From the NCBI GenBank assembly GCA_002794035.1, contig PCXQ01000007.1:1785-65784 (forward strand): a DNA stretch of 64,000 nucleotides, read 5' to 3'. This DNA is from Candidatus Yanofskybacteria bacterium CG10_big_fil_rev_8_21_14_0_10_36_16 (GTDB taxonomy: Bacteria > Patescibacteriota > Minisyncoccia > 2-02-FULL-40-12 > IGHO2-01-FULL-4-A). The translations under genes were made by a program, and so were the position numbers. How positions within the stretch are numbered: position 1 is the first letter of the stretch; the number at the start of each line of letters is the position of its first letter. Shown here one piece after another: positions 3,072 through 41,977 of this stretch. A model generated the notes under the pieces. That model made no database searches. It was given only the letters and a program-made list of their open reading frames with translations, and was not told the DNA's origin.

Positions 3072-3506
3072 ATGGGAGACGAATTAAAAAAATTAGAAAA
3101 TGAAGACAATGAAGAAGAGACGACTGATGAGGATTCTGAGGAAGCCGATCTTGTTGCAGCTCAAACAAAAAAAACAACCTCGGATAATGAGGAAGGGACT
3201 CTTACTGTTGATGTCCTTAGGACCAGTGATGATGTTTATATAAAATCAGCCATTGCTGGAGTAACAGCAAAAGATCTTGATATAACAATCAATAATGATA
3301 TGGTCACAATTAAAGGCAATAGAAAGCAAGATGAAACCTTAAAAACTGCCTCCTATGACTGGAGAGAACTTTATTGGGGACCTTTTTCAAGAACAGTAAT
3401 ATTGCCGGAAGAAATTGATGTTGATAGTTCTAAAGCATCTATAAAAAACGGGGTTTTAACTATTAAATTACCCAAGGTCAGCAAAAATAAAACTAAGAAA
3501 ATATAG
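3072..3506 (+). CDS. Hsp20/alpha-crystallin family small heat-shock protein
   Basis: Acidic N-terminal region followed by an alpha-crystallin domain (LTVDVL..DDVYIKSAIAGV..DLDITINNDMVTIKG...GVLTIKLPK). Confidence 0.8.
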   Translation: MGDELKKLENEDNEEETTDEDSEEADLVAAQTKKTTSDNEEGTLTVDVLRTSDDVYIKSAIAGVTAKDLDITINNDMVTIKGNRKQDETLKTASYDWRELYWGPFSRTVILPEEIDVDSSKASIKNGVLTIKLPKVSKNKTKKI

Positions 3507-5104: not shown

Positions 5105-6631
5105 ATGAATTTAAGATATTTTAAACTTATAATTAGCGCGATAATCCTTGCGGGGTTTTTTTATATTACTTGGATTATGATTGATCCTGATATTTTTTGG
5201 CATTTAAAGGTTGGCCAAGAAATATACACAACAGGAGGAATCCCCCACTTTGACCACTTTAGCCACACGATGCCGTACCATGCATGGGTAGACCACGAAG
5301 CACTCACTGAAGTGTGGTTTTATTTAATGTACTCAAGCGGCTTTTGGTGGATTTTAAAAATAATATTTAGCCTAATTATATCTATACCTTTTATTTTTTG
5401 GATTTATAAAAGCAATAATTATTTCTTGCCGGTTGTGATACTGTTTTCATCTATATACCTTCTGGGAATAGCGGGAGTGAGACCTCAGTGGATTTCTTTT
5501 TTGTTATTCTTTGTTGTTTTTCAAATATTACTCCAAAAATATTGGCACAAAAAGAACAACAAATCATTTTATTTTCTACCGTTAATTTTTCTAGTTTGGG
5601 CTAATTTGCATGCCGGGTTTTTTATGGGTTTGATGACATTTGGTTTTTTGGTGATGATGAACCTATTTCAGAACAGAAACATAAATCAGGAAATTCGCCC
5701 AATAATAATTTTGGGATTAAGTACAATTGTTACACTTATTAATCCTTATGGCTGGCATATTTATGAAGAAATTTTTAAAGTAGCTACATCTTCTTCTACA
5801 TTAAAATACATTGCTGAGTGGCAACCAGTATTCACAACGCCAGATCTATCACTAGTACTATTTGGCGGGGTTTTTATTTCTTTTATTTTAATCTTTAAAT
5901 CATACAAAAAATATCCCCTGCCTTTTTTGGCTTTGTCTTTGATAATGTTTTGTATGTTTTTAATGTCAAAAAGACACGGACCTTTATTCTTTATAACTTC
6001 AATGCCAATAATTTTTAATGGATTTGAAATTATAAAAAACAAGATATATGTTTTGCGAAACAACAAACCTTTTTCCCAAACCGAAACCAACAAAGCACTT
6101 TCGGGAGTTTTAATATTGTTTATTATAGCATTGGGTTCTTTTGGTTATAAAATTTTAAATTATCAAGTATATAAAATTCCCGAAAATGCTGTTATCTTTC
6201 TGAAAGAAAATAAATATGGCCAAAAAGATTTAAAGCTATTCAATAATTATGGATGGGGTGGATATTTAATCTGGGAAACACCTGAAATAAAAGTGTTCAT
6301 AGACGGCAGAATGCCTCACTGGCAAAAAAACAAAGAATCCGCAATGAGCGATTATATTAAAACTGTATTCAATCCCGAAACAGAAGAATGGAAAAAAGTA
6401 TTTAATAAATACAAAATAAACACAGTAATAATGCCTGCAAATATATACCAACAAGAACACATATCAAAATATTCAATCAAAAAAATAGAGAATAAAATAA
6501 AAACATGGCTTAAAACTAAAGAAACCACAAAGAATAAAACTCTTGTGGGAATATTAAAAGAAAATGGCTGGAGCACCTCATACCAAGATGATGTTGCTAT
6601 AGTTCTAGAATGCGAAAAAGATTGTTATTAA
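5105..6631 (+). CDS. GT-C fold membrane glycosyltransferase-like protein (PMT/ArnT-like)
   Basis: More than 10 predicted TM helices with an acidic IDPD motif in the first external loop and a soluble C-terminal domain. Family assignment is inferential. Confidence 0.45.
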   Translation: MNLRYFKLIISAIILAGFFYITWIMIDPDIFWHLKVGQEIYTTGGIPHFDHFSHTMPYHAWVDHEALTEVWFYLMYSSGFWWILKIIFSLIISIPFIFWIYKSNNYFLPVVILFSSIYLLGIAGVRPQWISFLLFFVVFQILLQKYWHKKNNKSFYFLPLIFLVWANLHAGFFMGLMTFGFLVMMNLFQNRNINQEIRPIIILGLSTIVTLINPYGWHIYEEIFKVATSSSTLKYIAEWQPVFTTPDLSLVLFGGVFISFILIFKSYKKYPLPFLALSLIMFCMFLMSKRHGPLFFITSMPIIFNGFEIIKNKIYVLRNNKPFSQTETNKALSGVLILFIIALGSFGYKILNYQVYKIPENAVIFLKENKYGQKDLKLFNNYGWGGYLIWETPEIKVFIDGRMPHWQKNKESAMSDYIKTVFNPETEEWKKVFNKYKINTVIMPANIYQQEHISKYSIKKIENKIKTWLKTKETTKNKTLVGILKENGWSTSYQDDVAIVLECEKDCY

Positions 6632-6712: not shown

Positions 6713-7099
6713 TTATAGAGTTCCTTGTGACAAGGCATCTAATACGTATCCTGCGGTTGATAGAAGAACACCTACACCTAATACAACCATAGCACCAATC
6801 AAACCGTTAATGATTGTTGTTCTTGCTTCACCGGCTTTAGCAGCGTCACCTCCTGCAGCCATGTATTTAATACCACCGATAATAATGAATATTACAGCGA
6901 TAATAACACCTATAGCAATCAAGAAGTTACCAATTCTTGTTATAACTGATTCTATGTCAGCTAATTCCACAGCATCACCTGTAAGAGGAGGGCTGGGCTC
7001 ATTTAATACCTGGCCAAATACTACAACTGGCACAACTAATAAAGTAACAAGAGCCAAAGTAGGCGCAAGCACTTTCACAATTTTTAATGTTTTAGACAT
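6713..7099 (-). CDS. VirB2/TrbC-like (T4SS-pilin-like) small membrane protein, paralog 1
   Basis: Signal peptide, then hydrophobic helix, GGIKYMAAGGDAAKAGEAR loop and a second hydrophobic helix. Same architecture as the six paralogs that follow. Confidence 0.5.
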   Translation of the reverse strand: MSKTLKIVKVLAPTLALVTLLVVPVVVFGQVLNEPSPPLTGDAVELADIESVITRIGNFLIAIGVIIAVIFIIIGGIKYMAAGGDAAKAGEARTTIINGLIGAMVVLGVGVLLSTAGYVLDALSQGTL

Positions 7100-7468
7100 G
7101 TTTAATTTTTTCAGCGAATAGAGGAACGGGAATAATGCTTAAGCTTCTCTAAAGAGATTATTCTTGTTCCGCCATTCTTATATGAATTAATTTAGACCAA
7201 CGCTACGACCGAACCCTGCCTAATAAAAGCAACGCCCCGTCGGTCTTTAGTATTTTAAGGTTTTTATCCGACCTGTCTGGGAAAATCAATATTTATTGAT
7301 TCTACCAAACAGACCCCCTTTTATTATTATAATGTACTTAATTTATTGTCACAATAAAGCTATCAACAACTATATTTTTCTAATAAATCATATAAAAATC
7401 ATCGCATTATCTATACCCTATCTATCAGCAATCATTTAAAACCTTCATTCTGAAAATAAAATTAACGA

Positions 7469-7834
7469 TTATAAACCAAACCCTCCTGAAAGTGCACCGA
7501 CTATATGCTCTGCTGTTGAAAATATAGTGCCTATACCAAGAACAATCATTGCACCTATTAGTCCGTTTATTATGGTTTTTCTGGCGTCTGCAACCTTAGT
7601 GGTGTCTCCTTTGGCCGACATCCATTTAATACCTCCGTAAACTATGAAAATTACCGCAATAAAAGCTCCTGCAAAAAGCATAAACTGGGCAATGGTTTCT
7701 ATTACATCAAGAATGTTCTCAAGAGTGACAGGTGTAGCATCGCTAAATTGGGCAAAAACTGGAAACGCCAAAAACACCTGAACGAAGACTAGCAGAACCC
7801 AAAATACCTTTTTGTTTTCTTTAAAATTCAACAT
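7469..7834 (-). CDS. VirB2/TrbC-like pilin-like protein, paralog 2
   Basis: FAGAFIAVIFIVYGGIKWMSAKGDTTKVADARKTIINGLIGAMIVLGIG is the shared core. Start trimmed to the internal Met (MLNFKENKK) to avoid overlap with the next paralog. Confidence 0.5.
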   Translation of the reverse strand: MLNFKENKKVFWVLLVFVQVFLAFPVFAQFSDATPVTLENILDVIETIAQFMLFAGAFIAVIFIVYGGIKWMSAKGDTTKVADARKTIINGLIGAMIVLGIGTIFSTAEHIVGALSGGFGL

Positions 7835-7856
7835 AAAAAATTGTTTGAAATGAGAA

Positions 7857-8258
7857 TTATAAACTTCCTCCAGCAATTGCATTAAACAAGTAACCAGCCG
7901 TTGACATTATTGTACCAATACCAAGAACGATAATAGAACCAATCAAACCATTTATTATAGTTTGTCTTGCTCTTGCAACCTTAGATGAATCACCTCCTGC
8001 TGACATCCACAAAATACCGCCCCAAACAATAAATATTACCGCAATAAGCGCACCTGCAAACAATAGGAATTGGGCAATTGTTGTTATCGCATCTAGAATA
8101 CTGGTTAAATTAAGCTCTTCTGAATCTGGCACTGGATTACCTGGTATCTCTAATGCTCCTTCCGGATTAGTAAATTGAGCATTGGCCGACAAAGCAAACC
8201 CCGCTAAAAATAGAAGGACCGCTACCTTGCTTATATTTTTTTTATTAAAAATCTTCAT
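7857..8258 (-). CDS. VirB2/TrbC-like pilin-like protein, paralog 3
   Basis: FAGALIAVIFIVWGGILWMSAGGDSSKVARARQTIINGLIGSIIVLGIG. Start is probably MKIFNKK, preceding a signal peptide ending in ANAQ. Confidence 0.5.
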   Translation of the reverse strand: MKIFNKKNISKVAVLLFLAGFALSANAQFTNPEGALEIPGNPVPDSEELNLTSILDAITTIAQFLLFAGALIAVIFIVWGGILWMSAGGDSSKVARARQTIINGLIGSIIVLGIGTIMSTAGYLFNAIAGGSL

Positions 8259-8409
8259 TTTTAAATACAGCTCGGGAATAAGGACAAAAGATTGCCCAAC
8301 CGTTCCCAAAAGCCAAATTATTAATTATTTACTTAATTATATCTAAAAAACCTAAACAAATCTAATTTTTATACACAGAACTCATATTTTACTATAAATC
8401 TATTTTTTA

Positions 8410-8808
8410 CTAAAAAGATATTGAGCTAGTTACTATCTCACATGTAAAAGTAACTTCTACGCCTACTGCGTTTGCCACAGTTACCACTATTGTTCCGACA
8501 CCAAATATAACAACAGCTGCAATAAAAGCATACATAAGACCCTTTCTTGCTTCTCCTGATTTTTGGACATCACCCTTAGCTGACATTAATTTGACTGCTT
8601 CAACCATAAAAAAGATGACCAAACCAAACATGGCGGCATAGAATGTCCAACAAGCAAGGCCTGTAGCTATAGCCACCAAATCCTTAACGCTAAAATCCTC
8701 AATACCAAGTCCTTCTTGAGCATAAAGCGGAAATGGGAAACCAACCATAACCATCATAGATACAATTAACAGTGATGATAATAATTGTGTTTTGTTTATT
8801 TTATACAT
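8410..8808 (-). CDS. VirB2/TrbC-like pilin-like protein, paralog 4 (divergent)
   Basis: Signal peptide ending in LYAQ, then two hydrophobic helices separated by a KLMSAKGDVQKSGEARK loop. Confidence 0.45.
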   Translation of the reverse strand: MYKINKTQLLSSLLIVSMMVMVGFPFPLYAQEGLGIEDFSVKDLVAIATGLACWTFYAAMFGLVIFFMVEAVKLMSAKGDVQKSGEARKGLMYAFIAAVVIFGVGTIVVTVANAVGVEVTFTCEIVTSSISF

Positions 8809-8839
8809 TATAATTTTTATTCAATATTAATTAAAATAT

Positions 8840-9217
8840 TTAACCGTTGCCTCTTAGCGCAAGCACGCTCTCTATTAATGCTACAAATCCCCTGCCTATC
8901 AACACAACTGCCAGCCCTATAATTGCATACCACAAAGTTCTTGTGCCTTGTTGAAATTTCTGGGAATTGCCTCTTGAAGTATACATAATAACCCCAGCCA
9001 CGATTATCATTATTACAACAATGGGAATTGCAATTAATATGAGCTGGTCGGCTATTTGCTCAACAAGTTCTATAAATGTATCGGGGACATTATTACAACC
9101 ACCACCCAAGACACAAAGAGGATTTTCAAACTCTAAAGCAAAAACAGAACCAGCATTTAATACAACTACGGTGATCAATAAAAAGAGTAGCGCTACCTTG
9201 TTGTTTAAATTAGCCAT
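8840..9217 (-). CDS. VirB2/TrbC-like pilin-like protein, paralog 5
   Basis: Signal peptide, a CxxGGGC pair, and two hydrophobic helices with a YTSRGNSQKFQQG loop. Confidence 0.45.
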   Translation of the reverse strand: MANLNNKVALLFLLITVVVLNAGSVFALEFENPLCVLGGGCNNVPDTFIELVEQIADQLILIAIPIVVIMIIVAGVIMYTSRGNSQKFQQGTRTLWYAIIGLAVVLIGRGFVALIESVLALRGNG

Positions 9218-9371
9218 ATTTAAAAAATTCAATTTACAATTTTTAATTCTTAATTTTCATTTAATTTTCAATGAATTAATTTTTAAACATAATACATTCC
9301 AAAACCATGTTTCAGAATTAGAAATTAAAAATTCATTAAAAATTATAAAATTATAAATTAAAAATTAAAAT

Positions 9372-9734
9372 TTAATTGCCGCCACGCAACACACTAACAA
9401 CCAAATTTACAAATCCTTGTCCTATAAAAATAACTGCAAGGCCTATTATGGCATATTTTAACATATCCATACCCTGTTTAAATTTTTGGGGATTACCTCC
9501 TGCGGTAAACATCCTAACACCAGCAATAATGATAACAATAATTGATATTGGAATTGATAATGTTACCAACCAAGTTCCAATTGTCTTTATTAATTCTTCA
9601 AAACTGCCGTAGCCAACAAAGTCAGGAAGTTGTGCATATGCATTATTTACAGCAAAAATACTTATAAAAAGCATTGGTATTATTGCAAAAAATAAAGCTT
9701 TTGATTTTGTTGGCATAATTGTTGTACTTAACAA
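9372..9734 (-). CDS. VirB2/TrbC-like pilin-like protein, paralog 6
   Basis: Signal peptide ending in AYAQ, then IIVIIIAGVRMFTAGGNPQKFKQG loop and a second helix. Confidence 0.45.
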   Translation of the reverse strand: MLSTTIMPTKSKALFFAIIPMLFISIFAVNNAYAQLPDFVGYGSFEELIKTIGTWLVTLSIPISIIVIIIAGVRMFTAGGNPQKFKQGMDMLKYAIIGLAVIFIGQGFVNLVVSVLRGGN

Positions 9735-9753
9735 TTAAAAATTGAAAATTATT
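9735..9753. repeat. AT-rich 19-mer TTAAAAATTGAAAATTATT (copy 1 of 2), candidate promoter/operator of pilin genes
   Basis: Exact 19-nt match to 11375-11393, both immediately upstream (minus-strand sense) of pilin-like genes. A degenerate third copy lies at 11409-11426. Confidence 0.5.
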
Positions 9754-9774
9754 TAAAAATTACGAAATTAATTT

Positions 9775-11304
9775 TTATATTCCCTCACACCCTATAAATG
9801 CGCCATTATTATCACCCGCGGTCACGTGCACATGAGTGACCCCCCCGTTTGAACAACCAGGGCCAGACTCAAGAAGATTACCTGCACCATCAACACATCT
9901 AGGACATTCCACAAAACCTCCGGAACCCGTTTCGCAATTAGCAGCTTTGGCTCCACATTCAATTGCTGCTTTCTGTATAATAGCTCCAACGCCTGGATAT
10001 TTAAATTGATCATAATCATAATCAATAGCTAGAGCGCCTTGATCACCCGTTCTGCCCCCATAATGACATGAGTTTGGAGAATGAGCACATGGACCACACC
10101 AATTATATCCTCTAGTATAATTACATCGCCAATTTGATATTGATAGTTCATAAGTAGATATCGTACCAACATTTTTACCCCTTGTTTTGGTACCTATACA
10201 TGATTGCAAAGCATCTGTTGATGGTGCATCACCAAAAGGATATTTTTCTCCGCAAATTGAAGCAATTGCTACCCATCCTGGATTAGAAGATGACCATGTA
10301 GCACAAGCAGGGTCTATACCTGCACCAGTTGCACAATTAGGAATTGGCGTAGAAGTAACCGTTGGTTGAGGTGGTGGTGGAGGTGGTGCAGTAGCTGTTA
10401 CTGTCGGAGGTGGTGGAGGTGGCTGAGTTGGTACAGACGAAACTGTTACCAAACAAGCATCTGCATCAGATTCACCGCTACCCCCTTCGTCCGTAACTGT
10501 AAAATTAATAATGTAAATTCCTGGGGAAGAATATGATGTTTGGAAAGCAAAACAACTTGTACTAGATACATTGGAAGCGCCTTCTGCATGCCAGCTACAA
10601 CTCAAGGGGGCGATGCCGTTTGTAAATGCACCAAAATTGATAATTTGACCCACCAACGCTGTAACTGCTTCGCCAGCCCCAAACCCATTTGGTTCAACGC
10701 AATCTGCAAAAGCCTCGGCACTAATACAAAGACCACATCCATCATTTTCAGGAGCACCGCAATCTATTTCATTCATTGTGCAATTGCGATCAACATCAAC
10801 ACAACCTGCCGGAAATTCACAAGGGCCAGGACCTGGCAACTCACTAGGCAAACTAAGCGGTGGTGGTATAACAACAACATCGCCACCCTGACAGTCAATT
10901 TGATTCCATGCTCTAAAATCAACCCCGTTATCCCCGTTAGTTAAAGAAAGCAAAATAGTATTGGTAATCATCCATGCTCCATATATTATAAGCAGAGCTA
11001 TTAATGTATTTTTAAAAATATTCTTGCCCCTTTGGAACATGTCTGGCTTGGCTCCGCCCATAAGCATCATCAAGCCCCCAATAATTATGAATACGGCAGC
11101 CAATACGGGCACTATGTTATATGACAAAAAATTGATAATTCTTTGTATCATGACAAAGATATCACATATAGTACACGGGCTCTGTCCCTCATTTCCACAA
11201 GGAACAAAACCTCCTTGGGCATACACATCGTTTACAATAAAACCACTGACAAAGAGGATCAGGGTTATTATAAAAAAGAAGGTTTTAAATTGTTTTAGTG
11301 CCAA
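9775..11304 (-). CDS. pilin-like N-terminal domain fused to PKD-like domain, poly-Pro linker and C-terminal LAS/M15-like zinc peptidase domain
   Basis: N-terminus has the same signal peptide/helix/GG..K-loop/helix layout as the six small paralogs. A PKD-like block follows (GIYIINFTVTDEGGSGESDADACLVTV), then PPPPPPTVTATAPPPPPPQP. The Cys-rich C-terminal domain carries SCHYGGRTGD (SxHxxGxAxD-like) and THVHV (HxH) zinc-peptidase motifs. Confidence 0.55.
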   Translation of the reverse strand: MALKQFKTFFFIITLILFVSGFIVNDVYAQGGFVPCGNEGQSPCTICDIFVMIQRIINFLSYNIVPVLAAVFIIIGGLMMLMGGAKPDMFQRGKNIFKNTLIALLIIYGAWMITNTILLSLTNGDNGVDFRAWNQIDCQGGDVVVIPPPLSLPSELPGPGPCEFPAGCVDVDRNCTMNEIDCGAPENDGCGLCISAEAFADCVEPNGFGAGEAVTALVGQIINFGAFTNGIAPLSCSWHAEGASNVSSTSCFAFQTSYSSPGIYIINFTVTDEGGSGESDADACLVTVSSVPTQPPPPPPTVTATAPPPPPPQPTVTSTPIPNCATGAGIDPACATWSSSNPGWVAIASICGEKYPFGDAPSTDALQSCIGTKTRGKNVGTISTYELSISNWRCNYTRGYNWCGPCAHSPNSCHYGGRTGDQGALAIDYDYDQFKYPGVGAIIQKAAIECGAKAANCETGSGGFVECPRCVDGAGNLLESGPGCSNGGVTHVHVTAGDNNGAFIGCEGI

Positions 11305-11458: not shown

Positions 11459-12796
11459 TTAGTTCCTAGCTCTGCGCATTAACACGTTTACCTGCCTTTC
11501 TGCATTTTCAAGAGCATCTCTTACTGAGCGTCGGCCAAAGTTAACATCATCTATCATATCAGCAAAAATCTTTTCTATATCTGTGTTATCTACTTGATAC
11601 CAAGACCGAGCCGACAAAGACTGCTCAGCGAATATCCCTATGTCTGGTTTCCTTTTCTGTTGCTCTATTAAGTCACGGCGGGCAGCTGGACGCCCAGATG
11701 CATCGAGATAAGCAGCAGCACCCTCTGCAGAACTCATAAACAGAACAAACTTCCATGCCTCAATTGCATTACCTGATGATTTAGATACGGTGGGCGCCCA
11801 ATAGTTAGCATAGTTTACTTTTATCGGGGCATCTTTTATTTGAGGCATAGAAGCAATCCCAAAGTTAAACCTTGCTGCCTTATCTCTAATGGTAGCTATA
11901 TGATGAGAATAGTTAAACATCATTGCTGTATCACCCTCTATAAAGTCGTCTATGGAATAATTCTGACCATCATTCCAAGTGTAAACCTTCCTCTTTAGCG
12001 GATTGGCAAAGTCTGTGTAATACTGAAGCGCTAATTCTCCCACTTTTTCTCTATCAACAGCACTGGTAAAAGTGGCTGTAGTATTGGTGGAGTTTGTCAT
12101 TTGAACTCCACTTTGAAGCATCATGAGCATTAAAATGTCTGTTGAACGGTTAACATTCCTGGCCGTACCGATTGCTGCTCCAGATCTTACAATATTTCCA
12201 TCATTATCAACAACTGTCAGACGATTTACTGCATCGTTAAATTCTTCCCAAGTTTCAGGCGCCCTAGTCAAGCCAACGGAATTAAATAAGTCCTTGTTGT
12301 AATACAAGGCTAACGTATCAATATAAACAGGCAAGGCTGCAATCCTGCCGTCTATTGTTAGGTCATCTACCGCAACGTCAACAAATTGATTCTGGAAATC
12401 AGTGATAGTAAACAACGGCTCCCCGTCCTCTCCTTGGAGATTTTGAGGCAAGGCTACGATTTTGTCTCCATGCTTTGGCAACCAAGTATTGTGCATCATC
12501 CAAATATCAGGACCGGTTCCTGAAGCAAAAGCATCTATCAGTTTTTGTTCATATTCATCATAGCTAAACTGTTTATAAACTATTCGAATCTGCCTGTTTA
12601 CACTCTTGTATTTATCCAAAACAGCATTTATGACTTCCCGGTCATCAAAAACCCCCCAAAATTGTAACGTAGTCGTCTGAGTTGGAGCTCTGCTTTTTAT
12701 ATTGCCAAGTAGCAATATCATAATCAAAATTATTACAACAACTGCTGCAACAATAGCTATAAAAAACATTTTGTTTTGACCTAGAGAAAACTTCAT
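11459..12796 (-). CDS. extracellular solute-binding protein (ABC transporter SBP family 1, sugar-type)
   Basis: N-terminal TM/signal anchor followed by MalE-like periplasmic binding-protein composition. No cognate permease or ATPase is adjacent. Confidence 0.6.
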   Translation of the reverse strand: MKFSLGQNKMFFIAIVAAVVVIILIMILLLGNIKSRAPTQTTTLQFWGVFDDREVINAVLDKYKSVNRQIRIVYKQFSYDEYEQKLIDAFASGTGPDIWMMHNTWLPKHGDKIVALPQNLQGEDGEPLFTITDFQNQFVDVAVDDLTIDGRIAALPVYIDTLALYYNKDLFNSVGLTRAPETWEEFNDAVNRLTVVDNDGNIVRSGAAIGTARNVNRSTDILMLMMLQSGVQMTNSTNTTATFTSAVDREKVGELALQYYTDFANPLKRKVYTWNDGQNYSIDDFIEGDTAMMFNYSHHIATIRDKAARFNFGIASMPQIKDAPIKVNYANYWAPTVSKSSGNAIEAWKFVLFMSSAEGAAAYLDASGRPAARRDLIEQQKRKPDIGIFAEQSLSARSWYQVDNTDIEKIFADMIDDVNFGRRSVRDALENAERQVNVLMRRARN

Positions 12797-13494: not shown

Positions 13495-13530
13495 AAAACC
13501 CCGCCCTTGCTAGCAAGGGCGGGGTTAATT
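13495..13530. terminator. rho-independent terminator (bidirectional)
   Basis: aaaaaCCCCGCCCTTGCtaGCAAGGGCGGGGtt perfect hairpin. Confidence 0.65.
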
Positions 13531-19519: not shown

Positions 19520-20363
19520 TTTTGATGAAAGACTGAAATGCCTTAGTAAATTAGGCATAGATATTAGGGTTTTAAACTTAACTTCTGAGATAAAAGATGG
19601 AAATCTATTTTTTGCTGAAGTATTGTCTCCCAAAAATAATTCAGGTCTTCTGATTATGGCTGAACCCAACGAAGAAGTTAAATTTGGAGTTGTTGTGGAC
19701 TTGGAAAAAAATTCTGAATTAATTGTGTTTGAAGTTTCGGGGAAAAACAGAAACATCACTCTGCTTGGAAACAAGTCCCCCTCAAACTCAGCCACGAAAA
19801 CATTTATCAAGAGGGTGCGTACCCACCCTGATAAAACAGGGTGCTACACAACTAAAAATAATGCCTTCCAAAACAACGGGCTTTGGGTAGCCAAAATTGG
19901 TCCTAAAAGTCTTGAAATGTGGGAAATCGCTATAGTAACCCAAATACAGGGATTGTCGAAATATTACCTATCCCTGCAAAAAGTGTACTGTGCCGATTTA
20001 TATGAAAATAATGGAGAGATATTCGTTCCTGAAGAACAATTTCTAAATTATAACAATTGGCAATCCTTAAATGAGTTAGTTAAGAAATGTGTAAATGTTG
20101 AAAAACTAACCTCAGCAAAAAATTATTCTCCGCCAAACGATACCGCGCCAGAACTTGAACCAAATAAATGCCAAATTCAATGGTTCAACCAGTCGCGACG
20201 TTATGGACTTGGGAACATCAATGGGCACCGAGGCCCAGTCATGATTCACTCTTCTGAAATTTTAGACCAAGAATTCCCGGCCTTAGATCCGGGAACAATC
20301 GTCAGTTTTGACAAAATAAAAAGAACACCTCAGGGATTACAACTCCAAGGTGTAAAGGAATAA
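19512..20363 (+). CDS. hypothetical protein with C-terminal cold-shock (CSD/OB) domain
   Basis: C-terminal QIQWFNQSRRYGLGNINGHRGPVMIHSSEI...GTIVSFD matches the CspA pattern (G.VKWFN..KGFGFI...DVFVHFSAI). Overlaps the Nudix gene by 8 nt, so probably operonic. Confidence 0.55.
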   Translation: MYNFDERLKCLSKLGIDIRVLNLTSEIKDGNLFFAEVLSPKNNSGLLIMAEPNEEVKFGVVVDLEKNSELIVFEVSGKNRNITLLGNKSPSNSATKTFIKRVRTHPDKTGCYTTKNNAFQNNGLWVAKIGPKSLEMWEIAIVTQIQGLSKYYLSLQKVYCADLYENNGEIFVPEEQFLNYNNWQSLNELVKKCVNVEKLTSAKNYSPPNDTAPELEPNKCQIQWFNQSRRYGLGNINGHRGPVMIHSSEILDQEFPALDPGTIVSFDKIKRTPQGLQLQGVKE

Positions 20364-20396
20364 AAAAAATCCCCCCGCCAAAGCGGGGGGTTTTAG
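20364..20396. terminator. bidirectional rho-independent terminator
   Basis: aaaaaaaTCCCCCCGCCaaaGCGGGGGGtttt. Confidence 0.65.
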
Positions 20397-20434
20397 TCCC
20401 CGAAGGGATAAATTCAGTGTTGAGTCAGCAGCGA

Positions 20435-21520
20435 TCAGCTGGCGGCACCCGTCTTGCGGAGCACCTTGCCGCTGGATCCCTGGACCTTTAAGGTCTTGGA
20501 CTTTTTGTTCGGTTTGGGAGCATCGGCTCCCGCACCTTGTTGGCGGCGCCCCTTCAGTTGGGACACCACCGTGACGTCGCCCTCCACCGATTCGTCTTCC
20601 TCGGCCCGTTGAAAGGCCATGGAAATCGCACCGATGGAACCCGGGTGGCAGGATGCCACGCGATCGTCTCCGATCAGCGACCCGTTTTGGACCGCTTCTC
20701 GTGCCGATTCCAGGTCATACCCGGCTTCGGTAAGCTCATTGGCGGTCCGCTCGTGGAGCGACACGCCGTTCCAATTGACCAAGGTCGGCTTGGGCCGGCC
20801 TTGCCAGTTTCGCTGGCGATCCTGACGATCGTTGTTTCCGCCGAAGCCGGTCGGGCGACCGCGATGATCACTGCTGTTCGGATTCCTCTGGCTCTGGGGC
20901 AAGTTTCTTGAGATCTGCTTGCGCAAATCTCCAAGTTTCCACTTGCCGGCGAGCTCTGGCCCTTCCGCCTTCTTGTTCGCATAGGTTCCCCAGCGGATGT
21001 TGAACAGATCACGGCAGCCCTCGCATGCCGTGAACATGAAGAGATCGCTCGGCTTTTCGTTGCCGAACGCCTCTTGGGTCAGGGTTTCCGCCCTGTCCAT
21101 GATCTCGTCCTTCCCGTCGACGCCTTCGACTAGCTTCTCCAAGGTCTTCGCCTTGAATAAGTAGAAGTTACCGCCGACAACGATGGCCTCGCCGTCATCG
21201 CTCTCTCGAGTGATTACACGCGGCTGGAACATTTGGTCGCAGACGGTGCAAGACCGTTGCGGACCGTCAGGCTCGTAGCCGGTGAACAGGCTCATGCCCT
21301 CCAACAGAACCCCCTCGAGGTCGGCCCGGGTCCACAGCCGATTCTCCTTCTGGAGATCGGCGTTGTGGCCACGCATCCGGCCGGGGTCGAACGGCTTACG
21401 CCGAACGTTCATCTTGAGAAGGTTGAATGCCTCCTCTGTGCAGGAGAGATTTACTTCGATCTTATCCCCCTGCTCGGTATAGGCGCGGAACTGAAAGTCC
21501 CGCCGTTCTTCTTGTGCCAT
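20435..21520 (-). CDS. hypothetical protein A encoded in a high-GC (about 60%) islet; two CxxC pairs, basic C-terminal tail
   Basis: Long ORF on the minus strand in a sharply GC-rich segment (about 20395-21620). Several shorter overlapping ORFs in other frames occur in the same segment. CTVC and CEGC motifs and a KPNKKSKTLK tail. No recognisable family. Confidence 0.5.
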   Translation of the reverse strand: MAQEERRDFQFRAYTEQGDKIEVNLSCTEEAFNLLKMNVRRKPFDPGRMRGHNADLQKENRLWTRADLEGVLLEGMSLFTGYEPDGPQRSCTVCDQMFQPRVITRESDDGEAIVVGGNFYLFKAKTLEKLVEGVDGKDEIMDRAETLTQEAFGNEKPSDLFMFTACEGCRDLFNIRWGTYANKKAEGPELAGKWKLGDLRKQISRNLPQSQRNPNSSDHRGRPTGFGGNNDRQDRQRNWQGRPKPTLVNWNGVSLHERTANELTEAGYDLESAREAVQNGSLIGDDRVASCHPGSIGAISMAFQRAEEDESVEGDVTVVSQLKGRRQQGAGADAPKPNKKSKTLKVQGSSGKVLRKTGAAS

Positions 21521-21871
21521 CGTGGCACCTCCTTTAAAGTAACGGGTTGAACCGCCAAAATACCCCTGAACTCAACAGAGGAACTGGCGTTTTGAACACG
21601 ATTAATGATTGATTCAACAATCAGAAACGTAGCCAAAATACCAGCTCCTCTAAAACATATTTAATATTTTAAAAGTCCTGTATCTTTCCTATCTTTATCA
21701 GTATATAATCATTATAACAAATTGACATGTTTTGTCAACCCCGCTCTTGAAATAATTCGGAGTTTTGAGCTAGACCCTTAAAAACCCTTATAAATAGCCG
21801 TTATGTGGGCCTTAAATAATAAAAAGGCCCGCCTGCTTAATTTAATAACACAGGCGGGTTATTAGCCATTC

Positions 21872-23254
21872 CTAGAAACTAATTATATTACCATTTGAAG
21901 GCTTTATAATGCTCCCCAAAAAACCATTTGATAAAATAAGTTTTTCAAGGCCTTCTCGGCCATTTTTTTCTCCATGATTTAATATCACTCGTTTGGGGTT
22001 CAGGTTTTTAACAAAACCAGAGAGCTGGAGACCGTCTGCGTGACTGGTAAGTTCAAATTTCTCAACACGGGCTGAGAGATTGATTTCGTCACCATACACA
22101 TTAACAATTCCTCCGTTTTGACTGGCATGAAAGATTTCATAACCCTCAGTTAGAGGTGCCTGGTATCCGGTAATTCCGAGCATGTTTCTAGTTCTTTCAA
22201 GGAAACGGCCGGATGTTAAGTGGGCTTGAGCGCAACTTCCTCTAACCATCATGCCTGCAGTTGTAACCACTGCAAGAGGATTAGGATTTCCTGAAGATAA
22301 AATCTCCATTCTTTGAGCTCTGTTATAAATTTTAAGCAAATCAATTTCTCCCGAGTTCAAATCAATCCCAGAAGAATGATCTAAATTAGACCAATACCCA
22401 AACTTACTGGCATATACATCGAACATGGTCACACACATGCCATCAATAAAAGGCTTTAATCCTCTACTTAACAAAGCCAGAAAAACATCCGGGCCTCGTC
22501 CGACACCAAAAGCTGGGAATACGGCTTTGCCGTTTCCATTCATAACATCCGATGCAATACGTGCCAATCTGTCTTCTTCAGGATAGCGCTCTACAATGGA
22601 GCGATCTCCATAAGTTGACTCAATAAATAGGTGATCAACCCTGCCGACAAATTCTTCAGGCATTTCCATGCCCCTAACTGTCGGGGTGTCATAAAAAGAC
22701 ATATCTCCTGAAAAACAGGTTATTGTTTCTCCAACTTTAAGGAATATCATCGCTGAACCGCGAATGTGACCGTTTGGCCAATAAAAAGCATCCACACCTG
22801 GAAACAAATTAATCCATCCCGGTTTTTCAATCTTTGTTATTTTCTCACATGCCTTTGCTGCAGCATCTGAAAAAATCAGGGATTCTCTAACACCTTCATT
22901 TTGTTCTTTGATGTATGAGGTGTTAAGCCATAACTGCATCGCAATAGCCGAAGTTGGAACCGTCATATAAATTGACGCTTCGGGATTTTCTTTTAAAACA
23001 TAGGGAATGTTGCCAGTATGGTCAGAGTGAGCATGAGTAATTAATACAGCATGCACAATATAATCTGGCATAATATGGCCCTCTGAATAACTAAACCTCT
23101 CGCCATAATCATCTAAACCGGTTCTTGTCTTAACTCCGGAATCAATTAAAATGTTTCTATTGTTTCCAAGGTCATCCTTTACTCTAACAAGAGTGGCTGA
23201 TGCACCTACTTCATCAAATCCTCCAAGACATTCAAAAGCCTTAATTTCGGCCAT
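21872..23254 (-). CDS. beta-CASP family MBL-fold ribonuclease/hydrolase
   Basis: LITHAHSDHTG (MBL motif 2), ESTYG, LTSHAD and LNHGE motifs in beta-CASP order. AT-rich codon usage like the rest of the window. Confidence 0.7.
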   Translation of the reverse strand: MAEIKAFECLGGFDEVGASATLVRVKDDLGNNRNILIDSGVKTRTGLDDYGERFSYSEGHIMPDYIVHAVLITHAHSDHTGNIPYVLKENPEASIYMTVPTSAIAMQLWLNTSYIKEQNEGVRESLIFSDAAAKACEKITKIEKPGWINLFPGVDAFYWPNGHIRGSAMIFLKVGETITCFSGDMSFYDTPTVRGMEMPEEFVGRVDHLFIESTYGDRSIVERYPEEDRLARIASDVMNGNGKAVFPAFGVGRGPDVFLALLSRGLKPFIDGMCVTMFDVYASKFGYWSNLDHSSGIDLNSGEIDLLKIYNRAQRMEILSSGNPNPLAVVTTAGMMVRGSCAQAHLTSGRFLERTRNMLGITGYQAPLTEGYEIFHASQNGGIVNVYGDEINLSARVEKFELTSHADGLQLSGFVKNLNPKRVILNHGEKNGREGLEKLILSNGFLGSIIKPSNGNIISF

Positions 23255-23342
23255 TTCATTTTCTCCTTGTTCTCAAAAAATATTGTAAAACTACTAAATT
23301 ATAATATTACCACTTAAAAAACAAAAAGTCAATATAAATTAA

Positions 23343-23377
23343 AGGCCCGCAAGGTAGTGTTTCCACCTTGCGGGCGC
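23343..23377 (-). terminator. rho-independent terminator downstream of GC-rich ORF B
   Basis: CCCGCAAGGtagtgtttccaCCTTGCGGG hairpin just 3' of the minus-strand stop. Confidence 0.55.
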
Positions 23378-23380
23378 ATG

Positions 23381-24340
23381 TTAGCCGGCCATTAGAACCG
23401 GCTCATCATCGGGGGATTCTTCGTCATCCCCCTCTTCGGGAGCTCCCGGGGTCGGGATCAGATTTTGGTCCGACGCCGGCCGCCAGTCTACTGAGGTCGA
23501 AGATTTCTCAACCCCGTTTAAGATCACGTAGTTTGCGAACGTAGCCGGGACTTCCAACCCGTTCGCATAAACCCAGTCGATGGCCTTGTAGATGTCCGTG
23601 GCCTCGTCTTCGGAAATCGGCACAAGGAGCCATGGTGGGACCCACATGCCGTGCTGGAACGTGCCCTCATCCGGATTGAACTCGTCGGTCCGGAATTCTT
23701 CTTCCTTGTGGTATCCATCTTGGTCATACCACTCATAGAAGACCGAGTACGCATGGGTGAACTGGACATACGTCCACGCCCGCTCCTCAGCATACCTCCA
23801 GTAGGGCTGAGGCTGGACCAACTTACAACACCGTCCGTCGGGGTAGAACTCCCGCGCCGCCTCGAAAGGCAACACGACCTTCAGCCAGACTTCCTGTTCA
23901 AGCTCGGGTTCCGAGTCAGGCTGACCCGGAATGGCTCTCCGTTCCACAGGAAGTTCCTCGAGGAAAGGCAATTGACTTAGCCACTCCTCGGGGGTGAGGG
24001 TCAGGTGGAATCCGTTTTGATGACCGTTCCGAGAACTCGGATCGGACATCTTGAACTTCCTCCACTGAATCGATCGCGCGGTCACGGTGATCAGGTCCGG
24101 GACTTCGCCCGGATCGAACACCAAGCCCTGCTTCGATTCTCCTTCGCCAACGAATACCGTAACGGATCCGTCGGCATGGCGCTTTTCCACCACGTCCCCA
24201 TCAGGGGTCATGATGGTCCGGCACTCTCGTTCCTCTCCTCCCTGAGTCGTCCAACGACGGACGACTTCCTTGAAAGCGGGTTTTGTTTCAGAGGCCGCTT
24301 TACCCTCTGTTTCCTTGGTCATTCTTTTCTCCTTCACCAA
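23381..24340 (-). CDS. hypothetical protein B encoded in a second high-GC (about 58-60%) islet; acidic C-terminus
   Basis: Long ORF on the minus strand. The GC-rich segment (about 23345-24360) is bounded by AT-rich intergenic DNA. No recognisable motifs. Confidence 0.5.
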   Translation of the reverse strand: MVKEKRMTKETEGKAASETKPAFKEVVRRWTTQGGEERECRTIMTPDGDVVEKRHADGSVTVFVGEGESKQGLVFDPGEVPDLITVTARSIQWRKFKMSDPSSRNGHQNGFHLTLTPEEWLSQLPFLEELPVERRAIPGQPDSEPELEQEVWLKVVLPFEAAREFYPDGRCCKLVQPQPYWRYAEERAWTYVQFTHAYSVFYEWYDQDGYHKEEEFRTDEFNPDEGTFQHGMWVPPWLLVPISEDEATDIYKAIDWVYANGLEVPATFANYVILNGVEKSSTSVDWRPASDQNLIPTPGAPEEGDDEESPDDEPVLMAG

Positions 24341-26441: not shown

Positions 26442-26477
26442 CTTAAACGTTTTTATAACCAACAAAACCAAGCCTTG

Positions 26478-26551
26478 TGGGCATGGGTGGACTCGAACCA
26501 CCGACCCCGGCTTTATAAGAGCCGTGCTCTAACCAGCTGAGCTACATGCCC
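26478..26551 (-). tRNA. tRNA-Ile (anticodon UAU)
   Basis: Reverse complement folds as GGGCATG/CATGCCC acceptor stem, anticodon stem CGGCT/AGCCG with loop CUUAUAA (U33-UAU-A37), and T-loop GGTTCGAGTCC. Confidence 0.7.
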
Positions 26552-39490: not shown

Positions 39491-40927
39491 GTGAAGGATT
39501 TAAATTTTTTATCACCAAAAAATAAAGGATCAAAACCAAACAATACCGCGACTAAAGTCGCTACCTTTTTGGCATTCTTTGCTATTGCTTTCTCTGCTTC
39601 CCTTACTTATGTAGCATCGGAAACAAAACCAATTCAATTAAATCTCAGCCACATTGAGTGTAATTATAATAATACTGATGGTATCAATGTTCACTTTGTG
39701 GCAATAAATTTACCGGATGATGTCAGTGATTTTGGACAAGTAACCTATATAGTTAATAGTGAAGGCCGTACTGCTGAATTTACTAAGCTTTCCGGCAATA
39801 CTGCACACTACAATGATTACTTACTAGAAGTTTCTGATACATATTCTGTAACCGATGGCTATGTTGTTATTGACGGACAAACCGTACAACTTCATAATCC
39901 TAAATCTATAAAGATAACTTGTGGTGAAAATCCTACCCCTACACCAACACCAGAACCTACTCCTACTGTAATCCCTACACCTACACCTACTCCTACTGTA
40001 ATCCCTACACCTACACCTACTAGCTGCTTTTTAGAAATCACCAAAACAGTTGATCAGGAAACATCGGTTCCTGGTCAAATATTGGAATATAAATTAAATT
40101 TTGAAAATACAGGAACAACCAACTGCACAGGTGGTGGAGTAGAAATAGAAGACACATTAGTGAATGAGTTAACTTTTGTTGACCAATCTCATTCTGAAAA
40201 TGTAACTTGGGTAGGTCAAAATGAACAAACCCTTCAATGGAATGCTGGCACTCTAACCCCCGGTGAAAAAGGATGGGTTCAGTTTGACGCTCAAGTTAAC
40301 ACACCTCAAAGCTGTGGCAATTATACAATTAATAACAAAGGCAAGATTACTGCATTTGAATTGTCTTGGCAGTGGGTACTAAGTAATAACGTAGAGATAA
40401 ATATCAACAACAACTGCCCTACTTCTACACCAACTCCTACTCCTACTGTAACCCCTACTTCTACACCTACACCAACTGTTACACCTACTCCTACTGTAAC
40501 CCCTACTTCTACACCTACACCAACTGTTACACCTACTCCTACTTCTACACCTACACCAACTGTTACACCTACTCCTACTTCTACACCTAGTGGTGGAGGT
40601 GGGGGTGGTGGGGGTTTCTTCCCTCAGCCTACTCCTACACCGACACCTACTGTAACTCCTACACCTACTCCCGTTGTTCTTGGTTCAAGTACAACTGAAA
40701 AACCTAAAACAGCAACATCTAGCACAGCAACATCAAATTTGGCACAAGTTGCTGGCGTAAGCACAGGAACCGATACAATTATTGTTTCGTGGATTATAGC
40801 ATTAGTGTTCTCAACGTTATTTGCTATATATAAAACAACAGAGCAATCAAACTTAAAAGAAATCCTTAAAATTATAAAAATTCAAAAAAAGGACAAAAAT
40901 AAATTTAATTTCGCTCTCCACAACTAA
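39491..40927 (+). CDS. cell-surface protein with DUF11-like repeat domain, Pro/Thr-rich linkers and C-terminal TM anchor
   Basis: N-terminal TM/signal anchor. CFLEITKTVDQETSVPGQILEYKLNFENTGTTNCTGGGVEIEDTL is a DUF11-like block. Long (TPTPTVTP)n tracts, a Gly8 run and a C-terminal hydrophobic anchor. Confidence 0.6.
   Translation: MKDLNFLSPKNKGSKPNNTATKVATFLAFFAIAFSASLTYVASETKPIQLNLSHIECNYNNTDGINVHFVAINLPDDVSDFGQVTYIVNSEGRTAEFTKLSGNTAHYNDYLLEVSDTYSVTDGYVVIDGQTVQLHNPKSIKITCGENPTPTPTPEPTPTVIPTPTPTPTVIPTPTPTSCFLEITKTVDQETSVPGQILEYKLNFENTGTTNCTGGGVEIEDTLVNELTFVDQSHSENVTWVGQNEQTLQWNAGTLTPGEKGWVQFDAQVNTPQSCGNYTINNKGKITAFELSWQWVLSNNVEININNNCPTSTPTPTPTVTPTSTPTPTVTPTPTVTPTSTPTPTVTPTPTSTPTPTVTPTPTSTPSGGGGGGGGFFPQPTPTPTPTVTPTPTPVVLGSSTTEKPKTATSSTATSNLAQVAGVSTGTDTIIVSWIIALVFSTLFAIYKTTEQSNLKEILKIIKIQKKDKNKFNFALHN
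40425..40600 (+). repeat. in-frame tandem nucleotide repeats encoding the Pro/Thr linker
   Basis: Repeated cctac(t/a)cctact(g/t)taac/acacc units, followed by a G-rich run ggtggaggtgggggtggtggggg. A smaller PT repeat block lies at 39945-40020. Confidence 0.7.
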
Positions 40928-40966
40928 AAAACCTTGCCTTCTTAATATGTGATAAAATGAAGGCAT

Positions 40967-41959
40967 ATGGTAATAAACAAAGATATGTTAATACGTGTTG
41001 AAAAACTATTTACACGCAAGTTAATTGTGTGGAACTTGGTCCTTTTTGCTCTTGTAAAATTTGTACTTTCTTACTCAGGACTCCAACTGGCTACAGTTCT
41101 AGAACACATAGAGCTTTTTGACTCAAGAGAAATCATAACTAAAACAAATATAGTCAGAGCAAATAATAATTTGCCGCCTTTAAATGCTAATGTTGAATTA
41201 GACTTAGCCGCATCAAAAAAACTTCAGGATATGATTTCAAATGGATATTTTGCTCACATAAGTCCTGAGGGTACGACACCTTGGTTCTGGATAAAAAATA
41301 GCGGTTACAAATACGTATACGCAGGCGAAAATCTTGCTATTGGGTTCACTGAGGCTGAAGCTACTGTTGAAGCATGGTTTGAATCCCCTTCCCACAGAGA
41401 AAACCTTTTAAACAGCAACTACGATGAGATTGGAGTTGCTGTAGGAAAGGTTGAAAACTTGGATGGATACTCAGGCATCTTGGTTGTTCAAATGTTTGGC
41501 AAAAGACCAATATTTGCAATTAACGAAGCCAATGCCTTTGAAACATCTAATAAGACCCCAAACACAGAAGGGACTACTGTACCAGAAATTACACCTAATT
41601 CGTTTGTTGCAGGCAGTCAGCCGGCAACAAATCCCAATACTTCAGCAATTACCCCAATAACAGATGACGAAGTGGTAATGCTTCAATACGTATCTACAGA
41701 TAAAAACTTAGGTGGGTCAGAGGAGCCGATTGAAATAACAACAAACGAAAATAATTTAAATATAAACTCCGTATCAAAGACTGTTAATAATGCTTATATT
41801 ATTTATGCCCTAATAATAGCCGCTATATCTATCCTATTCGTAACATTTGTTGAAAATAGTAAAAAACATGTTGCTGGAGCTACGTTTAATATAATTCTGT
41901 TTATAATAGCTACAACAATGCCTGTATTAGAAATAATAAGCAAGGGAGCAATATTCTAA
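40967..41959 (+). CDS. CAP/SCP/PR1-like domain protein with N- and C-terminal TM segments
   Basis: GYFAHISPEGTTPWFWIKNSGYKYVYAGENLAIGF...AWFESPSHRENLL..YDEIGVAV are the CAP domain signature blocks. Confidence 0.7.
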   Translation: MVINKDMLIRVEKLFTRKLIVWNLVLFALVKFVLSYSGLQLATVLEHIELFDSREIITKTNIVRANNNLPPLNANVELDLAASKKLQDMISNGYFAHISPEGTTPWFWIKNSGYKYVYAGENLAIGFTEAEATVEAWFESPSHRENLLNSNYDEIGVAVGKVENLDGYSGILVVQMFGKRPIFAINEANAFETSNKTPNTEGTTVPEITPNSFVAGSQPATNPNTSAITPITDDEVVMLQYVSTDKNLGGSEEPIEITTNENNLNINSVSKTVNNAYIIYALIIAAISILFVTFVENSKKHVAGATFNIILFIIATTMPVLEIISKGAIF

Positions 41960-41977
41960 AGATGACAGAATATAAAA

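Follow-up and report, generated by a model that had tools for sequence, protein, structure and literature searches.

The DNA considered here, referred to below as the window, is a stretch of 64,000 nucleotides from the genome of Candidatus Yanofskybacteria bacterium CG10_big_fil_rev_8_21_14_0_10_36_16 (contig PCXQ01000007.1), and our subject is an array of type IV secretion system (T4SS) pilin genes that lies near its left end. Seven consecutive minus-strand open reading frames (ORFs) occupy positions 6713-11304, and every one of them was found where the original prediction, made from the sequence letters, had placed a run of seven genes. We number them from gene 1 at the 6713 end to gene 7 at the 11304 end, with transcription running from gene 7 to gene 1 (Table 1). 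The 7.1 kb around the array does not differ by a single base between the public ENA, JGI, and Logan assemblies, and the GC content of the array (0.367) is like that of the window (0.357), which together indicate that the array is native and stable; the observation of seven genes is real and not due to chance. A hidden Markov model (HMM) built from the seven pilins found no further pilin within the window. Several of the starts given by the longest ORFs are probably too far upstream, as public gene calls are shorter (100-114 aa for gene 6, 125 aa for gene 5, and 121 aa for gene 2, a JGI call). The likely starts are M7 or M21 for gene 6, M18 for gene 3, and M17 for gene 2, and gene 5 is likely 125 aa long; if gene 2 begins at M17, its 26-nt overlap with gene 3 disappears. 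A look-up of gene 6 in its longest form gave no entry, as the public calls start later, and a homolog search with gene 6 returned only gene 6 itself.

Table 1. Features of the pilin array, its upstream partner, and the T4SS gene cluster on the same contig. Positions beyond 64,000 are window-equivalent coordinates; lengths of genes 1-7 are those of the longest ORFs.
Feature	Position	Strand	Length	Remarks
Gene 1, class IV pilin	6713..7099	-	128 aa	PF18895 34.1 bits; clade IV; last in array, best conserved across species
Non-coding gap ahead of gene 1	7100..7468	-	369 bp	sigma-70-like promoter match TTGTGA-17-TATAAT at 7354-7326
Gene 2, class IV pilin	7469..7882	-	137 aa	PF18895 32.1 bits, PF04956 32.3 bits; clade IV
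Gene 3, class IV pilin	7857..8309	-	150 aa	PF18895 31.2 bits; clade IV
Gene 4, class III pilin	8410..8808	-	132 aa	PF18895 26.9 bits; clade III
Gene 5, class II pilin	8840..9232	-	130 aa	PF18895 31.7 bits; clade II
Gene 6, class II pilin	9372..9734	-	120 aa	PF18895 46.1 bits, PF04956 36.5 bits; clade II
Gene 7, class I "long pilin"	9775..11304	-	509 aa	PF18895 29.0 bits; clade I
Gene 7, conserved C-terminal domain	9814..10275	-	~150 aa	residues 344-497; probable LAS zinc peptidase
Gene 7, signal peptide and pilin module	10930..11304	-		residues 1-125
Membrane-anchored SBP_bac_1/SBP_bac_8 protein, carbohydrate type	11459..12796	-	445 aa	Pfam 103-109 bits; directly upstream of gene 7
Terminator-like hairpin after gyrA	13497..13526	-		strong; 13 bp, 9 GC; pattern match only
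TolB-like beta-propeller	63139-64251	-	370 aa	63139..64000 in window, cut by its end; first T4SS-cluster gene visible
Two-transmembrane protein	64324-64965	-	213 aa	
VirB4	65055-66803	-	582 aa	NCBIfam NF045971 (CD1110-family VirB4), 343 bits vs cut-off 325
TrsD/TraC-like protein	66828-67472	-	214 aa	
PrgI (VirB3-like)	67500-67883	-	127 aa	
Unknown protein	67965-68825	-	286 aa	
TrbL_3 (VirB6-like)	68822-70876	-	684 aa	

Our analysis showed that these seven proteins belong to the VirB2/TrbC-like T4SS_pilin family. All seven genes score above the gathering threshold of PF18895 (T4SS_pilin; 26.9-46.1 bits against a cut-off of 26.6), gene 4 by a mere 0.3 bits, and two of them, genes 2 and 6, also pass the cut-off of PF04956 (TrbC/VirB2; 27.9 bits). 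This bears out the assignment made in the original prediction, which had named VirB2/TrbC-like pilins of the T4SS family known from the candidate phyla radiation (CPR). A hydropathy scan found three hydrophobic segments in each protein, namely a signal-peptide h-region followed by two transmembrane (TM)-like helices, consistent with the predicted signal peptide plus helical hairpin in all seven, and the two loop strings that had been quoted, GGIKWMSAKGDTTK and GGILWMSAGGDSSK, are both present in the sequences. The signal peptidase I (SPase I)-type sites of genes 1 to 7 read, with the cut marked by an arrow, VFG↓Q, VFA↓Q, ANA↓Q, LYA↓Q, VFA↓L, AYA↓Q, and VYA↓Q; the common ending (Y/F/N)AQ proposed earlier therefore describes five of the seven, but not genes 1 and 5. 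In the AlphaFold2 (AF2) model of gene 7, the hairpin is formed by H46-84/H87-122 at predicted local distance difference test (pLDDT) values of 80-95. Two other identities for the small proteins were rejected. Holins and other small membrane families gave sub-threshold noise only (DUF1634, DUF6112, and similar, at E 0.006 or worse), and a type IV pilin or type II secretion system (T2SS) pseudopilin does not fit, as the G↓(F/M)xxxE motif occurs in none of the seven and two TM helices follow an SPase I-type signal. None of the seven genes matched a Pfam pilin N-terminal family.

The array had been described as standing without adjacent secretion machinery, and inside the window this is true, as neither the precomputed Pfam annotations nor Pfam scans of the remaining ORFs revealed VirB4, VirB6, or VirD4 in the 64 kb. 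It does not hold for the contig. The window sits in a larger metagenomic contig (ENA ERZ27293400 k141_378028, 218,414 bp; contig coordinate = window + 132,221), and 10 kb of sequence beyond its right edge (locus L024, whose overlap with the window is identical; window coordinate = L024 + 51,770) carries VirB4, TrsD-like, PrgI, and VirB6-like genes at 65055-70876. VirB4 begins about 1 kb beyond the right edge of the window, at a distance of 54 kb from the array and about 6 kb from dnaA; it has an intact Walker A motif (GKSGGGKS) and 55-58% identity to the VirB4s of Patescibacteria. The cluster begins about 4 kb from dnaA, and, with several more secreted proteins of unassigned identity after the VirB6-like gene, it runs from 63139 to about 73000 (L024 11369-21317). 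Judged by its gene content, the T4SS cluster is complete-looking and of the monoderm (MPF-FATA-like) type. The array thus looked devoid of machinery because the window ends about 1 kb short of VirB4, and it is not an orphan; an "orphan" call from a single window can be an artefact of where that window ends. Within the readable T4SS cluster of about 10 kb, no ORF matched the pilin HMM even at an E of 10, so no source of pilins besides the array was seen in 81 kb. The genes dnaA and dnaN lie at 56.4-59.1 kb of the window, and the surroundings of the array consist of housekeeping genes.

There are also some matches to the conjugation proteins of Mycoplasma. Genes 1-6 (6713-9734) gave sub-threshold matches (30.3 bits at best, where the cut-off is 40) to NCBIfam NF045849, "Mbov_0395 family pilin-like conjugal transfer protein", which models a pilin-like protein of a Mycoplasma integrative and conjugative element (ICE), and the VirB4 of the contig also matches the Mbov_0397 ICE ATPase model. 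These matches hint that pilin-like proteins are not wholly missing from monoderm FATA-type systems. A separate PilB-type ATPase is encoded at 48004-49713 between nusA and ruvB; its MshEN and T2SSE domains confirm that it is of the type IV pilus type, as had been proposed, and no pilC, pilM, or prepilin gene adjoins it.

To place the seven genes among their relatives, we used genes 1-3 to retrieve 14 related loci, 12 of which are labelled as metagenome-assembled genomes (MAGs) of Patescibacteria or the CPR (Saccharibacteria, Magasanikbacteria, Nomurabacteria, Parcubacteria, and Paceibacterota) and two as "Gammaproteobacteria". For the window and five of these loci (L010-L014), a BLAST matrix and a neighbour-joining (NJ) tree of the pilin cores gave four clades, and membership of a clade corresponds to position in the operon. 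Clade I contains gene 7 and the first gene of L010, L011, L012, and L014, all of them long (292-509 aa). Clade II contains genes 6 and 5 together with genes 2-3 of L010, gene 2 of L011, L012, and L014, and gene 1 of L013, while clade III contains gene 4 and, from every one of the five loci, a single gene. Genes 3, 2, and 1 fall in clade IV, as do the final one to four genes of every related locus. In the Saccharibacteria locus, L012, each class is represented by a single gene. The correspondence is also seen in pairwise matches: gene 1 is 60% identical to the last gene of L010 (146 bits), and the best match of gene 4 is the fourth gene of L010 (42%, 87 bits). The more distant loci, L015-L019, do not permit a clean class assignment.

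Within the array, global identities range from 26 to 58% (26-46% to gene 1), and identity between classes is 22-33%. Genes 2 and 3 resemble each other most, at 58% globally and 68% locally, above the roughly 50% that had been estimated, and local identity is 55% between genes 1 and 2 and 56% between genes 5 and 6. These comparisons show four ancient pilin classes in the fixed order I-II-III-IV, with recent duplication only within classes II and IV. Because the same order of classes recurs in six loci, from Saccharibacteria to the lineage of the window, the classes predate speciation, and each has been retained since. The low identities between most members (22-33%) are thus those of ancient, retained, position-specific paralogs. 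The diversifying duplication suggested in the original prediction consequently applies to genes 1-3 and 5-6 only, while the divergent members represent four ancient orthologous classes in a set order.

The first gene of the array encodes more than a pilin. Gene 7 consists of a signal peptide, a VirB2-like hairpin, a Cys-rich middle, a Pro-rich linker, and a C-terminal Cys/His domain. Of 16 non-identical database homologs, 15 can be aligned with the pilin module and 14 with the C-terminal domain, and some of the homologs bear other extracellular domains (GH5 cellulase, SLT, or Ig/FN3). The domain is recognized by the motif CNYTRG..C..C(S/A)H..NSCHYGG..G..GA.A.D ... CE ... HVHV..C(D), and H408, H414, D428, and H493 are invariant and HVH nearly so in its alignments. 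A profile of the domain found 471 cluster representatives (E up to 1e-3) among 1.84 billion; in the best 150 of these 471, the domain is C-terminal in nearly all, and 113 of the 150 also match the seven-sequence pilin HMM. The topology of VirB2 puts the C-terminus outside the cell, which fits the many cysteines and the Pro-rich linker. Most of the domain is modelled at a pLDDT of ~80-93 in full-length gene 7, and residues 141-318 fall below 50. A PKD-like assignment for this middle part (E 0.05-0.15, pLDDT < 50) is not supported.

Searches for the identity of the domain returned little from curated collections. Fifteen members matched no Pfam family at E up to 0.5, no curated M15 or Hedgehog HMM matched the domain, its profile and a mixed profile gave spurious matches only against PDB sequences, and a Foldseek search of the full gene 7 model against the PDB gave nothing at E up to 0.001. 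In a profile alignment with a hand-entered sequence of the N-domain of human Sonic hedgehog (Shh), hhalign gave an E of 8.9e-5 and a probability of 60%. In the columns of that alignment, H414, D428, a conserved Glu, and H493 stand on a His, an Asp, a Glu, and a His of Shh, which we take to be H141, D148, E177, and H183. The spacing between H414 and D428 is 13 residues, as opposed to the 3-6 of LAS peptidases (H-x(3-6)-D). From these residue patterns, we think that class I probably carries a zinc peptidase of the LAS (Hedgehog/DD-peptidase) fold with an unusually long H-x13-D loop. As no Pfam, M15, or Hedgehog model matched, we do not file the domain as a member of LAS and regard it only as probably LAS-like.

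LAS zinc peptidases include the Hedgehog N-domain, the Streptomyces Zn DD-peptidase, VanY/LdcB, the phage L-Ala-D-Glu endolysins Ply500 and LysB4, and pneumococcal VldE. The gene 7 domain departs from these in its longer loop (H-x13-D, where they have H-x6-D) and in its many conserved cysteines. No M15 HMM matches it, and it shares one polypeptide with a T4SS pilin module. By analogy with this family, it may cut peptidoglycan peptides. Such a role would resemble that of the T4SS-associated peptidoglycan hydrolases VirB1, PrgK, and TraG(pIP501), where the wall is cut locally for a T4SS, and the SLT or GH5 domains on relatives of gene 7 are a further likeness. Unlike those proteins, the gene 7 domain probably has a fold other than SLT/CHAP, and it is covalently joined to a pilin rather than being a separate subunit.

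Directly upstream of gene 7 lies a gene for an orphan solute-binding protein (SBP). An SBP homolog stands directly upstream of, or inside, the array in eight relatives (L010, L012, L014, L015, L016, L017, L018, and L019), and these array-linked SBPs share 28-63% identity over ~400-475 aligned residues, though the flanking genes differ. The SBP is therefore a conserved partner of the array, a linkage that is not mentioned by Quinonero-Coronel 2025 (PMC12102498). Its nearest NCBIfam models are the sugar binders UgpB, GanS, and MalE, all far below cut-off, and no ORF anywhere in the window has an ATP-binding cassette (ABC) ATPase signature. In the Magasanikbacteria and Nomurabacteria MAGs, L016 (4543-14955) and L017 (2843-12950), the arrays are runs of 12-13 ORFs that match the pilin HMM, more than the published maximum of 11, and an SBP gene is embedded inside each run.

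The closest locus, L010, is syntenic with the window and carries, in this order, gyrA, a methyltransferase, the SBP, seven pilins, VanW, Hsp20, PrsW, and leuS. The terminator-like hairpin after gyrA suggests a methyltransferase-SBP-pilin transcription unit, of which the hairpin (13526-13497) is likely the upstream boundary, judging by the pattern match. At the other end of the array, the gap ahead of gene 1 is unusually long, with a promoter match followed by ~220 nt that could be a 5' leader, and this consensus match indicates that gene 1 may have a promoter of its own. Rfam matched only tRNAs in the window and nothing in the 369-bp gap. An Hsp20 gene (3072-3506) lies near the downstream end of the array, with VanW and a 508-aa membrane protein between them, and Hsp20 is likewise found near the array in L010 (12979-13386) and in Southlakia epibionticum (SEML1_0020); this proximity may reflect either conserved synteny or a functional link. 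The 508-aa protein (5105-6631, plus strand) is polytopic, without a family match, and convergent to the array, and because it is missing from the syntenic L010 we do not count it as part of the system.

Arrays of this kind were published between 2020 and 2025, and the present locus is one more example of them. In Saccharibacteria, McLean 2020 (PMC7427843) reported a T4SS-associated "novel secreted protein array" that was likened to the subunits of pertussis toxin, and in a study by Wang 2023 (PMC10633639) the pilin series of Southlakia epibionticum was found to be essential. Quinonero-Coronel 2025 (PMC12102498) searched 3,035 genomes with PF18895 and PF04956 and reported 441 arrays of 2-11 pilins, either in tandem or parted by one non-pilin gene, with a mean identity of ~25% and a maximum of 54%. 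In the same study, VirB2-like pilins were found in 1,948 VirB4-positive assemblies, near virB4 in 1,135 of the 1,948, and the T4SS cluster lay near dnaA in many Patescibacteria. The published hallmarks are all present in the window, with seven tandem genes, high divergence, and a Patescibacteria host. Like the Southlakia genes SEML1_0014-0019, the "Sec-secreted array" of TM7x, and the 441 arrays, the genes described here are tandem, on the same strand, and encode small PF18895/PF04956 proteins with signal peptides and low mutual identity, on a chromosome with FATA-like VirB4/VirB3/VirB6 near dnaA and no relaxase in view. Another likeness is the nearness of Hsp20 to the downstream end of the array, which it directly follows in Southlakia and from which two intervening genes part it here. 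Unlike the arrays that stand inside a T4SS cluster, this one is far from VirB4, but it shares that separation with a large minority of the assemblies in PMC12102498, and its distance is within the published range. The papers on published arrays describe neither the four-class order, nor a LAS-like domain on the first gene, nor an SBP upstream; both the ordered class structure and the conserved Cys/His domain on the class I pilin go beyond those descriptions.

Other secretion and pilus systems offer partial parallels. With VirB2, TrbC, and TraA of diderm T4SSs (the Agrobacterium T-pilus, RP4, and F), the array proteins share a signal peptide, a helix-loop-helix hairpin, and a basic loop. In contrast to those systems, the host is a monoderm, there are seven genes instead of one, VirB5, VirB7, VirB9, and VirB10 are not present, and there is no sequence-level match to the solved pilin structures. 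The minor-pilin operons of type IV pili and T2SSs (FimU-PilVWXE and GspHIJK) likewise consist of ordered, divergent paralogs in fixed positions, one of them with a large extra domain, and by analogy this likeness suggests a priming or tip complex together with a major subunit. The family is, however, unrelated, as there is no class III prepilin signal or N-terminal G↓F...E, and the assembly ATPase is VirB4, not PilB.

Taking these results together, we believe that the chromosomal operon probably supplies the set of pilins for the organism's own T4SS, which is of the monoderm type (MPF-FATA-like) and would build a pilus-like structure that spans the cell wall. In the mechanism that we envisage, the precursors would be inserted by Sec and cut by signal peptidase I, and the mature hairpins of ~85-110 residues would wait in the membrane until the distal VirB4/VirB6 machine pulls them out and assembles them into a pilus-like polymer that serves as a conduit across the wall. 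Class IV, which is the best conserved and most duplicated, would be the bulk subunit, and classes II and III would be specialised subunits present in few copies, perhaps as initiators or adaptors. Class I would use its pilin module as an anchor and present the putative LAS-type zinc peptidase on the Pro-rich stalk, where it could cut the peptidoglycan peptides of a host cell or of the organism's own wall and so supply a VirB1-like function, which most T4SS loci of Patescibacteria lack. The orphan sugar-type SBP would act with the structure, one possibility being that it binds carbohydrate released from the wall or derived from the host. In this mechanism, polymerisation, the roles of the classes, the peptidase activity, the involvement of the SBP, and co-regulation over 54 kb are inferred.

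The paralogs might instead be interchangeable major-pilin variants of one homopolymeric pilus, serving antigenic or host-range variation like the VirB2 paralogs of Bartonella and Anaplasma. This was suggested in PMC12102498, and it could account both for members that are mostly just 22-33% identical and for the duplicates within classes (68% between genes 2 and 3, 55% between genes 1 and 2, and 56% between genes 5 and 6). We nevertheless consider it doubtful, as the divergent members belong to orthologous classes whose order is the same at six loci, the array is identical in three independent assemblies, and the large extra domain of class I cannot belong to a simple variant; ancient classes tied to position argue against a pool of interchangeable variants across the whole array and favour differentiated subunits. 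The fact that the Southlakia pilin series is essential as a whole (PMC10633639) also fits non-redundant parts better. Much further from what we observe is the reading of McLean 2020, under which Sec would secrete the proteins as effectors or toxin subunits, with the T4SS aiding their export as Ptl does for pertussis toxin S1-S5. The N-terminal signal peptides and the association of such arrays with T4SSs in Saccharibacteria (PMC7427843) would agree with it, but the mature proteins are nearly all two TM-like helices, which suits a membrane pilin and does not suit a toxin subunit that is soluble, and all seven match pilin HMMs while none matches a toxin family in Pfam or NCBIfam even at E up to 1. 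We therefore rejected pertussis-toxin-like subunits as a candidate and hold this explanation to be very improbable.

The proteins could also be VirB2-like by descent but make no pilus, forming a membrane ring or channel or serving as anchors for extracellular domains (the LAS peptidase, GH5, SLT, or Ig-like) independently of the distal T4SS. Monoderm T4SSs are normally without pili (PMC12102498), a wide variety of extracellular domains is found fused to the pilin module, and the array is distant from VirB4 and has its own conserved partner in the SBP. We judge this explanation unlikely all the same, given that arrays lie inside the T4SS cluster in Southlakia and many other genomes, and that anchoring alone can hardly explain why four small classes lacking extra domains have been kept. 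Several points also weigh against our preferred reading of a wall-spanning pilin set. A T4SS-made pilus has been seen in no Patescibacterium, according to a 2025 review whose authors speculate that uptake from the host uses the pilus as its conduit (PMC12857230), which leaves polymerisation as an inference, and the pilin profile gave only spurious matches to PDB sequences, with no solved VirB2 or TraA structure found. The bulk, minor, and tip roles of the classes are drawn from analogy, the NJ tree carries no bootstrap support values, and the separation of 54 kb from VirB4 means that co-regulation is unproven. Furthermore, the SBP is not universal, as the Southlakia pilin locus is without one as far as its published table shows (PMC10633639).

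There are several other features of the window and its contig that are separate from the array. A tRNA-Ile with the anticodon UAU was predicted by ARAGORN at 26477-26551 on the minus strand, beside a tRNA-Val(UAC). A tRNA-Ile(UAU) is an uncommon bacterial route for reading AUA. The region 20001-24000 is GC-rich (0.46-0.50 compared with ~0.35 elsewhere), and it holds two ORFs without a Pfam match (20435-21520 and 23381-24340) and an RNase J-like gene with Lactamase_B and RMMBL domains (21872-23254). At 39491-42646, a sortase cluster encodes a surface protein with DUF11 repeats (478 aa), a CAP-domain protein (330 aa), and a sortase (222 aa), which points to a separate surface-anchoring system of the Gram-positive type. 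To the left of the window, 4-8 kb from its start (L008 1595-5977), we found a small mobile or defence-like island with a Vsr endonuclease, a C5 DNA methylase, an HNH nuclease, and a 571-aa serine recombinase, followed by an 826-aa protein without a Pfam match.

Patescibacteria, which live attached to host cells, account for a large part of bacterial diversity. A T4SS and a pilin series are essential in the one tractable species. The results described here add three refinements, namely that the pilins come in class-ordered sets and not in pools of variants, that the first pilin often bears a domain for cutting cell wall or polysaccharide, and that an SBP travels with the array. Taken together, these point to a wall-breaching organelle related to nutrition. 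It is tempting to extend this to a self-contained, conserved, and widespread module of the Patescibacteria, in which the SBP and classes I-IV would form a heteropolymeric filament with a LAS peptidase at its end that opens the peptidoglycan of the host while the SBP captures carbohydrate that is set free or comes from the host, a feeding organelle rather than a conjugation pilus, with the Cys/His domain as a new T4SS-specific branch of LAS; we regard this larger picture as speculative and rather unlikely. The residues H414, D428, and H493 of gene 7 and the individual pilin classes offer targets for mutagenesis through which the role of this structure in the attached life of the Patescibacteria may be approached.

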